DNA of 28,111 nucleotides from Pseudomonadota bacterium (GTDB lineage: Bacteria; Pseudomonadota; Alphaproteobacteria; Paracaedibacterales; CAIOTO01). A program made the position numbers. The DNA lies in assembly GCA_040387495.1 (NCBI GenBank), contig JAZKDQ010000015.1, positions 65,238 through 93,348 of the forward strand, written 5' to 3'. This document shows positions 3,001 to 5,025 of this stretch, in pieces (positions within the stretch are counted from its first letter, which is position 1; the number at the start of each line of letters is the position of its first letter).

Positions 3001-5025
3001 TAATAATACACAGCAACAGAGTAATAATACACAGCAACAGAGTAATAATGCACAACAAATGCAACAAGATCTTTCTTTGAGTTTTGAAACGTATGCAAAT
3101 GCACACGTAATAAGTCCAATTAAGGGGAGTATAGTCTTTACTGGGTTTCTTCCATCATTTGGGCAAGTAGTCATTTTAAAACAAGATGATTTCTTCTGTG
3201 TGATGACAGGTCTTGGTGCAGTCCATTGTTTTCTGGGTGATACTTTATTGCCAGGCGAGCCAATTGGTCGCATGCCACCTGCCGATAAATCCATAAGAAC
3301 ATTTAAATTACGGATGGAATTGCATAAAGGTGGTCAACATCTTGATCCACGTCCATATTTAAGTGCGGTTGCGAGCACGTAAGAGATTGGAGACCACCAC
3401 AAAAGCTCGGGGCTAAGAATTGCATAAGAGTTGCAGGTATATGTATTGACACAAAGTCTAATAAACTTTATTATTAGACTTTGTGTATTAGCTAAAAAAT
3501 TAAGGTTTTTTAGTATAAATATGAGGCGCTTTCTTATGCGTTCACTAATTAAAATTAAAATAATAAAAATGAGGACTGAAATGAAATCACCAATACCTGT
3601 TTTTGAAGATCTTACACAGATGGATACATACGATCTTGTTACGTACTTACCGGATCAAACATATTTACCTGATTATATAAAAGCGCTGAACTTTCTTAAG
3701 GCATACAATGGTAGCCAGGGCACATTCAATGCCTATCGTCGTGAAGTTGAACGTTTGCTCCATTGGTGTACACTTGTAGCACAGAAATCATTGCAAGAAG
3801 TAAAGCGTGAAGATATAGAGTCGTTTATAGAATTTTGCCAGAAACCACCCACAGCATGGATTGGTGTTAACAGATTATCGCGTTTTATCACAATTGACGG
3901 AATGCGACTACCTAATCCCAAATGGCGACCTTTTGTTGTTACGATTCCAAAAGCAGCATATCAAGCTGGTGAGCGGCCAAACCCAAAAGATTTTGAACTT
4001 TCTCAAAGCGCTATTAAAGATATGTTTGCCATTCTTGGTTCTTTTTTTACTTTTTTACTTCAAGAAGAATATGTGTTTGTAAATCCCGTTGCGCTTATTC
4101 GCCAAAAAAGTAAATTCATTCGTACGGCACAAAACAAACCTAAAATCAGACGACTTTCTGATCGTCAATGGAGCTATGTAATAGCAACCGCTCAAGAAAT
4201 GGCTACTGTAAATCCCACATTACATGAGAGAACGCTCTTTATGATGTCCACTTTATATTCAATGTATTTACGTATATCAGAGCTTGGCGCCAGTAAACGC
4301 TGGAGTCCAGCTATGAATCATTTTTTTAAAGATAGCGACGAGAATTGGTGGTTTACGACTGTTGGGAAAGGCAATAAACAACGGCAAATTGCAGTGAGTG
4401 ATACGATGATAGAAGCCTTAAAAAGGTGGCGTCTATATTTAGGGTTGTCCCCCCTTCCCTCACGTGCTGACCAATCCCCCTTAATTACAAAATTACAGGG
4501 ATTTGGTGCAATTACGAATACGACATACCTTCGTCGTGTCATACAAACTTGTTTTGATCAAACAATCGCTAAGCTTAATCAAGATGGCTATGAAGAGGAT
4601 GCAGATTCACTGAAGGAAGCAACTGTTCACTGGCTTCGGCATACAGGAATATCAGATGATGTTAAACACAGACCACGTGAACATGTGCGGGATGATGCCG
4701 GGCATGGATCAGGGACTATTACAGACAAATATATCGATGTGGATTTAAAAGAGCGACATAAATCAGCTAAACACAAACTTATTCACGAGGATAATGGTTT
4801 ATCATAAATTAATTGGATTTTCAACGCTTCTTGTGCCCGTGATAGATGTTTACCACTTAAATTTTTTGCATAAAATGAAAATCTCAGTTTCTAAGAGGGT
4901 TTACCCTAATTTGTCTTTTTACCCTCAAAAAGGAGTATATTTTTGTAATATGGACATATCTATGTCTTCCCCTCTTGCATATAAAATGAACTATGCGTAA
5001 AGTAAATCAACTTCAGATTAATTAG

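Follow-up and report, generated by a model that had tools for sequence, protein, structure and literature searches.

A XerL-family recombinase gene and a perfect palindrome at a former XerCD dif locus in an alphaproteobacterium

Few housekeeping reactions of bacteria are as conserved as chromosome dimer resolution by XerC and XerD at dif. To our knowledge, replacements of this enzyme pair are few, namely XerS, XerH, XerA and XerL. Intracellular bacteria of protists exchange genes.

The closest described system to the locus reported here is dif/XerL of Legionella pneumophila (Lpg1867) and Coxiella burnetii, as presented in the passages of PMC9765430 cited throughout. Our locus lies in a stretch of 28,111 nt of contig C15, hereafter the window, and shares with that system the recombinase clade, the catalytic residues and the apparent use of a single recombinase. 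The sites are alike in being low-GC, intergenic, uninterrupted perfect palindromes with a short centre (PMC9765430, same passages). The described system is further characterised by a dif of about 30 bp near the replication terminus (the cumulative GC-skew maximum), by recombination at dif and by filamentation upon deletion (PMC9765430, same passages). On the Coxiella plasmid, as in the window, the site lies just 5′ of xerL, and the inner pattern and the centre are common to both: GGTGATTA-CTTTGA-TAATCACT on the plasmid versus GTCTAATAA-ACTTTA-TTATTAGAC in the window. The plasmid site was deduced from the sequence next to xerL and from a homologous site in Ca. Coxiella mudrowiae, and it is likely the dif_pl of PMC9765430. 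The arms are 16 bp in the window but 10-12 bp in dif/XerL of Legionellales, and the outer sequence differs. Unlike the Legionellales systems, the window module has an alphaproteobacterial host and transposon-borne nearest relatives. The window site adjoins its gene on the chromosome, whereas dif of L. pneumophila is >400 kb from xerL, which means that a gene-adjacent site is not necessarily the chromosomal dif; Coxiella has a plasmid site beside xerL and a different chromosomal dif (PMC9765430, same passages).

Three other kinds of system bear comparison. In the Tn3-family modules TnpI/IRS (Tn4430, Tn5401) and TnpS+TnpT/rst (Tn4651), an inverted-repeat core site and promoters lie 5′ of the recombinase gene, as here (PMC7157771, in the excerpts cited). 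Unlike them, the window has no transposase and no clear terminal repeat, and its protein is ~405 aa long and belongs to the XerL clade. The Tn3-family resolvase types given in those excerpts are TnpR, TnpI and TnpS+TnpT only; our sole match to a labelled Tn3-type resolvase was 'Tn4401 family TnpR' (24.5% identity), and TnpI and TnpS were set apart by description. The difSL/XerS and difH/XerH systems have a single recombinase with dif beside the xer gene as one module, as in the window. However, XerS is a different protein family (the window protein scores 23 bits against the XerS cut-off of 267), and difSL and difH are only partly symmetric where the window site is fully symmetric (PMC9765430, same passages). 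XerC/XerD with the 28-bp dif resembles the window module in where its site lies on the chromosome and in the task that the module presumably has, but the window protein is ~100 aa longer and would be homomeric on a symmetric site.

The core of the locus consists of the following features.

3536..4807, plus strand: XerL-family tyrosine recombinase gene, longest ATG frame, 423 aa, stop-free
3449..3486, unstranded: perfect 16-6-16 palindrome ACACAAAGTCTAATAA-ACTTTA-TTATTAGACTTTGTGT, candidate XerL core site (dif-like) and operator
3446..3474, plus strand: sigma-70-like promoter TTGACA-17-TATTAT inside the palindrome, 11/12 consensus positions

The real start of the gene is probably ATG 3581 (M16), which has AGGA 7 nt 5′ and would give 408 aa, because homologues first align at about residue 13-19. 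An earlier note on this DNA had named the gene as the only tyrosine recombinase, and PF00589 indeed gave one match (28.4 bits) across the 1.66-Mb, 99.92%-complete assembly. Searched genome-wide at E ≤ 10, TIGR02225 (XerD) also found this gene only, at 38 bits versus a cut-off of 329.6. The protein reached neither NCBIfam equivalog cut-off, with 62.5 versus 335.15 bits for XerC and 55.9 versus 329.6 bits for XerD. Its reported likeness to the recombinase of C. burnetii pQpH1 was found again (58.8% identity, 97% coverage, E 6e-165), and identity to Legionella and Coxiella members was 55-59%. The closest homologues in the sequence search had 75-98% identity, and relatives in metagenomes 48-66% only.

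All the catalytic residues (R246, K278, H365, R368, H390 and Y399) are present and were invariant in alignments of 7 and 12 rows. Y399 aligns with the tyrosine that is altered in the Coxiella Y389F mutant. That mutant is inactive, the catalytic tyrosine being Y387 in L. pneumophila and Y389 in C. burnetii (PMC9765430, same passages). The host is related to Paracaedibacteraceae (Alphaproteobacteria) and to amoeba symbionts. It encodes RecA, RuvB and FtsK with a gamma domain; therefore, chromosome dimers should form. No second tyrosine recombinase was found in the assembly, and XerL may act alone, without a partner.

The earlier note had cited the 2022 description of XerL as restricted to Legionellales. 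This restriction does not hold, as the host lies outside that order and the search in the paper, as its cited passages describe it, covered taxid 118969 only (PMC9765430); the restriction is thus not a real defining feature of XerL. XerL-clade genes were found in records titled Alphaproteobacteria, Thiotrichales and Pseudomonadales. In a tree of 98 rows, the window protein grouped with G028:C247, G050:C45 and G026:C148 (support 99), and this group was nested in a clade of 85 rows (SH-aLRT 98) together with XerL of Legionella, Coxiella, Rickettsiella and Berkiella. The ~430-aa recombinases noted earlier in G003, G004, G006, G007 and G008 were found again but form a separate clade (A) in the tree and are not orthologs of the window gene.

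The source of the window XerL was probably a transposon, because its four nearest relatives (68-71% identity) all act as resolvase genes of Tn3-family transposons; the contigs that carry them are short or plasmid-like. In these four, a homologous palindrome sits between the divergent tnpA and recombinase genes, inside terminal repeats of 50-74 nt. The Tn3-family element of G026:C148 is a minimal one of 4.6 kb. A Tn3-family transposase adjoins the XerL-type gene at 7 of 25 metagenome loci. No tnpA (DDE_Tnp_Tn3) was found in the window; contig C14 has the genome's single copy, together with its own serine resolvase. No clear terminal repeats bounding the module were found. A transposase-less XerL copy also occurs in G050 (C46), a XerC/D-positive genome, among IS elements; a solo copy alone is thus no proof of domestication. 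Despite the loss of tnpA and of a clear terminal repeat, the window retains an intact ORF and 32 perfect arm positions, which may be read as signs of selection.

The position of the module was revealed by comparison with the M23-peptidase/mreB gap of the sister genome G004.

3365..4865, plus strand: inserted module (palindrome and xerL), ~1.5 kb, absent from the same gap of G004:C79; borders ±10 nt
4868..4890, unstranded: counterpart of the canonical XerCD dif of G004, with the flank GCATAAAA kept
2285..3382, plus strand: M23-family peptidase gene, left flank; final 5 codons and stop unlike G004 at the insertion junction
5035..6075, plus strand: mreB, right flank, followed by mreC, likely mreD (no Pfam match), PBP2 and rodA
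4810..4865, plus strand: spacer 3′ of the xerL stop, weakly similar to terminal inverted repeats of related Tn3-family elements

G004:C79 matches window positions 1500-3364 and 4968-6087, with 139 bp between the two matches. The one feature of this gap is the sole dif-pattern match of G004, the canonical XerCD dif AAATATTATAA-TTTGTA-TTATGGAAAAT. At 4868-4890, the window has 15 unrelated nucleotides where G004 has 34 nt containing the 28-bp dif. A scan of 3300-5100 with a dif position weight matrix gave a best score of -2.9 bits, and neither border of the module had a canonical dif or dif-like copy, whereas an IMEX, which host Xer integrates at dif, has dif on one side and a dif-like att copy on the other. 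Across the whole genome, the best score was 20.2 bits, as opposed to 24.3-39.4 bits for 30 true sites; this dif-like sequence, at C3:116540, was rejected, as it scores under the true sites and lies within an ORF. The GC content of the module is 0.383 and that of its flanks 0.37-0.38. The spacer at 4810-4865, which showed only weak likeness when aligned with G026:C148 and G028:C247, may be a decayed transposon end. For other XerC/D-less genomes, co-location with dif was sought at G060:C31 and G028:C33; these loci had no genes in common with the dif loci of the XerC/D-positive congeners compared (G055, G056, G058 and G061 for G060; G029 for G028).

Among the 20 contigs of this draft, the clearest internal maximum of cumulative skew lies at ~12 kb of C9. 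A 10-6-10 palindrome at this local maximum (C9:11867) was considered as dif and rejected, since an LRR-like ORF reads through it in frame. On C15, there is no GC-skew switch at 68.7 kb, as the earlier note had said, and positive skew runs for 88 kb. Skew and gene orientation flip at ~23.3 kb of the window, ~20 kb downstream of the palindrome and 5 kb before the contig end.

23300..28111, unstranded: stretch to the contig end with negative GC skew and minus-strand genes, possible terminus switch

This stretch may be mobile DNA, because a split umuC and a DUF5681 gene lie there. No contig-end overlaps of at least 15 nt that would extend C15 were found. The distance of ~20 kb falls inside the range of 89 bp-79 kb reported for Legionella dif (PMC9765430, same passages). 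A position of the palindrome near the terminus is only suggested in this draft assembly.

We surveyed 62 genomes of the order for XerC/D, dif and XerL, taking as XerC/D-less those with a best E > 1e-30. Ten genomes lacked a XerC/D-grade match, and the other 52 had a best E ≤ 2.9e-77. Canonical xerC/xerD, noted earlier as absent from this genome, are thus likewise missing in nine others, each also without the canonical dif motif, and the XerC/D pairs described in G001, G004 and G009 were found again. With an order-specific dif pattern, ATAA-N6-TTATGGAAAR, which replaced a looser one that matched no more often than the control, the canonical site was detected in 40 of the 52 XerC/D-positive genomes but in none of the 10 XerC/D-less ones. 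A XerL-like gene was present in 7/10 XerC/D-less versus 5/52 XerC/D-positive genomes (Fisher p = 1.5e-4, with kin not independent).

From these observations, we propose that a domesticated resolution module of XerL/Tn3 type now resolves chromosome dimers in this host, and we put the probability of this reading at about 0.6. The takeover from XerC/XerD that the earlier note had considered is supported by the recombinase clade, the loss of XerC/D and dif, the position at the dif locus and a site that travels with the gene; the activity itself we infer from sequence. The ancestor would have been a Tn3-family transposon inserted next to the XerCD dif, of which the res site and the resolvase gene were kept while the transposase was lost. 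The resulting module would be a stand-alone site-specific resolution system, consisting of XerL and its own 16-6-16 core site. By analogy with tyrosine recombinases and XerL, two XerL monomers would occupy the two identical arms. A dimeric chromosome would carry two copies of the site in direct repeat; the two XerL-site complexes would synapse, Tyr399 would cut and rejoin strands across the asymmetric 6-bp centre, and two monomer chromosomes would result. Since its site lies at the former position of dif, in the termination region, the XerL reaction could replace XerC/XerD/dif, and the older system would have been lost after the takeover. The palindrome overlaps the xerL promoter; therefore, bound XerL should repress its own synthesis. 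FtsK may also have a role.

The module could instead be an inert or selfish relic, a decayed Tn3-family resolvase with its res beside dif, in a host that has no dedicated dimer resolution or can dispense with it. We regard this as unlikely, although several observations fit it. All four nearest relatives are Tn3-borne and the family is mobile, and the palindrome is placed exactly as Tn3-family res sites are, overlapping promoters (PMC7157771, same excerpts). Fragments of XerL-like pseudogenes are present in G027, G028 and G050, and three XerC/D-less genomes, G002, G005 and G059 (75, 88 and 90% complete), have no XerL-like gene. However, all seven XerC/D-less genomes of >90% completeness retain an intact XerL-like gene. 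The window no longer has the transposase or clear terminal repeats, but its 423-codon frame and all 32 arm positions have stayed whole, and with RecA, RuvB and FtsK-gamma kept, dimers are to be expected. A chance landing in the dif gap, one among well over a thousand, would also be improbable unless the position mattered.

If the module is domesticated, the role of the palindrome is still to be weighed. The palindrome is the top inverted repeat of the window. Its arms (3449-3464 and 3471-3486) are 16 nt long and 100% complementary, the 6-nt centre is asymmetric, and the whole is 38 bp with a GC content of 0.237, in intergenic DNA. Its single-copy status, claimed earlier, was upheld: the runner-up place in the genome has 10 mismatches in the 32 arm positions, and the best other match to the inner 10-6-10 has 5/20 mismatches. 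The genome has 31 perfect 6-spaced palindromes with arms of at least 9, two of them with arms of at least 16, and a TAA-N6-TTA core is found only in that at 3449-3486. The promoter is the best of seven matches across 3300-5100, and its -35 box, ATTGACA, is invariant in the three Tn3-borne relatives aligned.

Palindromes that are perfect or nearly so around a 6-bp centre also lie 15-170 bp upstream of related genes in G026, G050, G028, G003 and G004. Upstream palindromes of the same type were found on the Coxiella plasmid and at 10 of 80 genome loci; at 63 of the 80 XerL loci, there was no perfect 6-spaced palindrome with arms of at least 7 upstream. The centre is mostly nCTTTA or CTTTTA on the coding strand, and the inner arms are RTWA/TWAY. 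The arm sequence varies by lineage while the symmetry is kept. By these sequence features, the palindrome is a member of a homologous site family that travels with XerL genes and includes the Coxiella plasmid site.

Such a site could still be just an operator or an ancestral res, with XerL resolving dimers at a diverged dif elsewhere. The distant or different chromosomal dif of Legionella and Coxiella described above (PMC9765430, same passages) is in line with this, as are the promoter embedded in the palindrome and the distances from candidate dif to xerL of 75 kb in G062, described below, and 21 kb in Ca. Coxiella mudrowiae. This alternative appears quite improbable, given that the assembly has no second or near copy, that the core is unique among the 31 palindromes while C9:11867 is inside an ORF, and that the module occupies the old dif locus.

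A further possibility, that the gene encodes the integrase of an integrative element that can still move (IMEX-like or of another kind) and has the palindrome as attachment site, is very improbable: dif-exploiting elements exist (PMC9765430, same passages) and the module is within ~10 bp of the former dif, but the insert consists of site and gene alone, has the GC content of its flanks and shows no second site copy of attL/attR type, and no well-supported joint that bypasses the module and has long flanks was seen in contigs from four runs. Contigs of a further sample from the same study carried this sequence, and those of another study short pieces identical to it.

If a domesticated module does resolve dimers here, XerL extends beyond Legionellales, a transposon resolution module can displace an essential two-enzyme system by landing in the termination region, and such displacement has occurred more than once among protist-dwelling intracellular bacteria. 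The locus also ties the origin of XerL to Tn3-family elements, and the 38-bp site and one gene make a short, testable pair from a non-pathogenic organism. We tentatively go further, with a confidence somewhat short of even, and suggest that all XerL systems could be domesticated modules of an undescribed Tn3-family class, in which a XerL-type resolvase gene and tnpA point away from each other and flank a palindromic res. Such modules would have displaced XerC/XerD/dif repeatedly, on one or more occasions in Legionellales and on at least three to four in this order, with two recombinase clades. In the window, one such displacement would be seen in situ, the new site lying within ~10 bp of the erased dif.

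In the literature, the relevant papers found to name 'XerL' were PMC9765430 (with its preprint) and PMC11472951 only, and a search on chromosome dimer resolution or Xer in Holosporales found no paper on such a replacement. A Legionella sp. chromosome (G066) had no exact GTGATWA-N6-TWATCAC, and one-mismatch matches were no more common than in the control. A precedent for XerL without XerC/D beyond Legionellales appears to be provided by G062, a complete 1.46-Mb chromosome labelled 'uncultured Alphaproteobacteria bacterium', which has XerL (62% identity) and no XerC/D-grade match. It carries one Coxiella-type 12-6-12 palindrome, TAAGTGTGATTA-TAGAAA-TAATCACACTTA, <4 kb from a sharp plus-to-minus GC-skew switch at ~502 kb; position 498,024 is the first of the inner 26 nt of this palindrome.

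The palindrome and the recombinase gene lie next to each other, as follows.

3449-3486: perfect 16-6-16 palindrome, the proposed XerL site
3536-4807, plus strand: xerL-type tyrosine recombinase ORF, an open frame of 423 codons

The real start of xerL is likely the ATG at 3581, because homologues begin near residue 16. The product matched Phage_integrase (27.8 bits) and an N-terminal SAM-like domain in Pfam and fell far under the NCBIfam cut-offs of all four models, XerC, XerD, XerA and XerS. As the earlier note had claimed, it is the sole tyrosine recombinase of the genome: PF00589 and the XerD model each matched xerL alone in this 1.66-Mb, 20-contig, 99.92%-complete assembly. 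Its likeness to the Coxiella plasmid recombinase was also borne out (Coxiella burnetii pQpH1, 58.8% identity, E 6e-165 in tblastn against plasmids). After pQpH1 came integrases of Pseudomonas megaplasmids at ~37% identity; many plasmid matches were at 24-29%, some of them labelled 'Tn4401 family resolvase TnpR'. In the alignment the catalytic residues were invariant, and Y399 was aligned with the Coxiella tyrosine that, when mutated, leaves the enzyme inactive (PMC9765430).

The RpoD encoded in the window shares 86% identity with a protein named 'Candidatus Paracaedibacteraceae bacterium' and 63-67% with proteins of Finniella and Odyssella, which makes the host an alphaproteobacterium akin to protist symbionts, in agreement with the earlier note; from its relatives we infer an endosymbiont lifestyle. 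The metagenomes containing this DNA are from watershed and freshwater.

We surveyed 62 genomes of the order (G000 being the genome under study). XerC/D-grade matches were present in 52 (best E <= 2.9e-77, usually two) and absent from ten: G000, for which the loss of xerC/xerD had already been proposed, and G002, G003, G005, G006, G007, G008, G028, G059 and G060. These losses span at least four genera and three families. A first pattern for dif, the canonical 28-bp XerC/XerD site, was too loose to be informative but showed that the XerD arm particular to this order is TTATGGAAAR. The pattern refined with it was present in 40 of the 62 genomes, compared with a few matches of the control: 40/52 with XerC/D and 0/10 without. 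The consensus from 31 pattern matches was AAATTGTATAA-TATATA-TTATGGAAAAT. XerL-like genes (47-71% identity) were found in 12 genomes, seven of the ten without XerC/D and five of the 52 with them. Fisher tests for the order survey, whose related genomes are not independent, gave p = 1.5e-4 and 6e-6. No XerL-like gene was seen in the other three XerC/D-less genomes, whose completeness is 75, 88 and 90%. Every XerL-like match in G027, which has XerC/D, was a broken piece. Three dif matches were seen in G025 (C72, C82, C96), one of them 6 kb from an XerL-like gene adjoining a broken Tn3 transposase, and four in G036 (C12, C20, C22, C53); dif-integrated elements, or copies arising in assembly, may account for them.

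In the sister genome G004, contig C79 has the gene order of the window: lpxK, gpmI, an M23 peptidase gene, mreB, mreC. The peptidase-side and mreB-side matches to the window are 139 bp apart there, and this gap holds the only dif-pattern match of G004, AAATATTATAA-TTTGTA-TTATGGAAAAT, nearly identical to the dif of its congener G001. Homology between the window and G004 ends at the stop codon of the peptidase gene (3364/3365) and restarts at ~4866 with GCATAAAA, the direct flank of dif in G004; past it, 34 nt that hold the 28-bp dif in G004 are replaced by 15 unrelated nt in the window. A dif weight matrix found no site in window 3300-5100 (best, -2.9 bits), and its best score in the whole genome, within an ORF on C3, was 20.2 bits, whereas true sites score 24.3-39.4 bits. 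The 1.5-kb insert consists of the palindrome and xerL and nothing else. From the homology borders and the erased dif, it therefore lies within about 10 bp of the former dif. This co-location was observed in one genome pair, window and G004, and was not seen again for G060 or G028. Between mreB and mreC the window has a gene for a 392-aa product that weakly matches Mito_fiss_Elm1 (6123-7301, plus strand), and in G004 mreC directly follows mreB.

The genome encodes RecA, RuvB and an FtsK with a gamma domain, so chromosome dimers should arise. The simplest reading, to which we give a probability of about 0.6, is that XerL and the palindrome at the old dif locus resolve them. XerL would bind both identical arms, two palindrome copies in a dimer would be brought into synapsis, and strands would be exchanged across the 6-bp centre. 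The former dif locus would provide for action at the right time and place, and bound XerL would silence its own promoter. According to PMC9765430, recombination at dif needs XerL alone, even in yeast, and dif has uninterrupted inverted repeats as arms, 10 bp long in Legionella and 12 bp in Coxiella.

XerL had been taken as restricted to Legionellales. In the same paper the orthologue search was confined to NCBI taxid 118969, Legionellales, so the restriction is not a tested finding, and our searches do not uphold it. In a large protein collection, 6163 relatives of the window recombinase were found at E<=1e-20 and >120 protein clusters were 61-98% identical to it; among the named ones are Ca. 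Paracaedibacter symbiosus (70%) and MAGs with the labels Alphaproteobacteria, Rickettsiales and Gammaproteobacteria. Species-representative genomes encode relatives in 580 stretches; the best 80 of these (53-69% identity) are in the majority from Legionella, Coxiellaceae, Berkiella and Aquirickettsiella and include records titled Alphaproteobacteria, Thiotrichales and Pseudomonadales. The name 'XerL' is confined, in the literature searched, to the original paper and one Legionella study. In the one collection searched, we found no paper that describes XerL outside Legionellales or links it to the Tn3 family.

A maximum-likelihood tree of the family (98 rows, quick search, SH-aLRT support) has two clades, A (13 rows, support 98) and B (85 rows, support 98). 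Clade A consists exclusively of genes of the window's own order; clade B holds every Legionellales XerL gene in the tree, including the functional Coxiella enzyme, and the window gene. The genes of congeners G003, G004 and G006 and of G007 and G008, earlier treated as orthologues, all belong to clade A and are thus non-orthologous. The window gene groups (99) with those of G028:C247, G050:C45 and G026:C148, adjoined by Berkiella and the Coxiella group. These three nearest relatives (four tree rows; L051 and G026:C148 are the same sequence) are each divergent from a Tn3-family transposase gene, with a palindrome in the intervening 100-bp gap (Pfam, tblastn).

Tn3-family transposons with an XerL-type resolvase (~400-440 aa) divergent from tnpA were G026:C148 (L235), G050:C45 (L233), G028:C247 (L004, L238), G004:C15 (L186) and G008:C32 (L185), and all but G008:C32 (4/5) have a palindrome between the two genes. 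At 4.6 kb between 74-nt inverted repeats, G026:C148 is a minimal element and the smallest of the five; on G050:C45 and G028:C247 there are, in addition, genes for conjugation, anti-restriction, toxin-antitoxin systems and group II introns. Tn3-linked clade A genes are in G004:C15, G008:C32, G025:C72, G025:C25 and, as a second copy, on G050:C45. Tn3 linkage was seen at 7/25 metagenome loci and 4/80 genome loci. This resolvase type is absent from the three types listed for the Tn3 family in PMC7157771, which describes res sites as bearing resolvase-controlled promoters. Sequence comparison points to a probable transposon origin of the window module; the window has no transposase, and alignment with related elements showed at most a faint trace of a terminal repeat 3' of the xerL stop. 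The genome's sole Tn3 element (G000:C14:64700-77000, L191; 12.2 kb, 50-nt terminal repeats) has an intact 1008-aa transposase, its own serine resolvase and a 2593-aa passenger ORF without a Pfam match. Transposase-less copies amid housekeeping genes occur in G000, G003, G007, G008 (C6), G028 (C33) and G060, all without XerC/D, and amid IS elements in XerC/D-positive G050 (C46).

With such an origin the module could be an inert relic, which we consider unlikely: the frame is intact and the arms are perfect though the transposase has vanished, and both the place at the old dif and the pattern of XerC/D, dif and XerL across the order also argue against it.

Palindrome and gene, as far as the sequences tell, are a conserved module, with the same build upstream of related genes:

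G026:C148: ATAAAGGTGATAA-CTTTTA-TTATCACCTTTAT
G050:C45, gene strand: CAATAAGGGTGATAA-TCTTTA-TTATCACCCTTATTG
G028:C247: ACTAATAA-TTCTTA-TTATTAGT
G003:C8, clade A: CTATATCCTGTAA-CTTTTA-TTACAGGATATAG
G004:C163, G004:C15 and G028:C33, clade A, imperfect: AAAGCTKGTAA-N6-TTAC...
pQpH1, 163 bp upstream of xerL: GGTGATTA-CTTTGA-TAATCACT

The pQpH1 site is, we infer, the dif_pl of PMC9765430, where Coxiella xerL is plasmid-borne and a dif-like site adjoins it. The arms vary by lineage with symmetry kept, outer AAAG and inner RTWA recurring; the centre is asymmetric and its orientation to the gene constant. Perfect arms of >=8 were seen at 10 of the best 80 genome loci, typically GTGATWA-N6-TWATCAC or CCGGTAA-N6-TTACCGG. 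At 63/80 no perfect 6-spaced palindrome with arms >=7 lay upstream of the XerL gene, in agreement with Legionella, whose dif is distant from xerL.

The window palindrome contains a near-consensus promoter, TTGACA-17-TATTAT (11/12 positions), and ATTGACA is invariant among the window and its three nearest relatives. The enzyme might be a true XerL with its real dif elsewhere and the palindrome just an operator; we regard this as improbable, since the assembly has no similar site anywhere else. The palindrome is perfect and single-copy, as first described, the runner-up place in the genome having 10/32 arm mismatches. Perfect 6-spaced palindromes number 31 with arms >=9 and two with arms >=16, the window's being one. 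The longest is an intergenic 17-6-17 palindrome at G000:C14:20086-20125, TTTATATAATCACCGGG-TCGGTT-CCCGGTGATTATATAAA, which includes Coxiella-type half-sites GGTGATTA/TAATCACC arranged back to back. A 10-6-10 palindrome, TATTAGTAAT-TTTCAA-ATTACTAATA (G000:C9:11867-11892), lies exactly at the local cumulative-skew maximum of C9 and has the same 9-nt arms as the palindrome found upstream of the L099 xerL; it is probably due to chance, lying in frame within an LRR-like ORF. That the module is a still-mobile integrative element is very improbable.

There is no GC-skew switch at the palindrome, as was noted before: skew on C15 is positive over 88 kb. At window ~23.3 kb, 5 kb from the contig end, both the skew and the direction of the genes flip, and this last stretch may be mobile. 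It contains a umuC-like translesion polymerase gene in two ORFs (24958-26280, minus strand; IMS; IMS_C+DUF4113), probably a frameshifted pseudogene, and then a DUF5681 gene near the contig end. Between module and flip, IS remnants (12141-13170, DDE_Tnp_1_5 fragment) and an IS6-family (IS240) transposase (16260-16934) are signs of rearrangement. No overlaps between contig ends were found that would place the terminus of this draft. The dif neighbours of G001, tkt and gap, are here on the same contig as xerL, 55 kb away.

As a proxy we used G062, a complete chromosome of 1.46 Mb with the title 'uncultured Alphaproteobacteria bacterium'. It encodes an XerL (62% identity), lacks any XerC/D-grade gene, and has a single 12-6-12 palindrome with Coxiella-type arms (inner 26 nt from 498,024; G062:C1:498024; L192, L221, L222), <=4 kb from a sharp plus-to-minus GC-skew switch. 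By its sequence this looks like a full dif/XerL system at a terminus outside Legionellales, and is no proof for the window. On the Ca. Coxiella mudrowiae chromosome (G063:C1:905024, L193), AATAATGGTGATTACTATTATAATCACT, nearly identical to the C. burnetii plasmid site upstream of xerL, lies 52% of the way along the chromosome and 21 kb from the xerL there.
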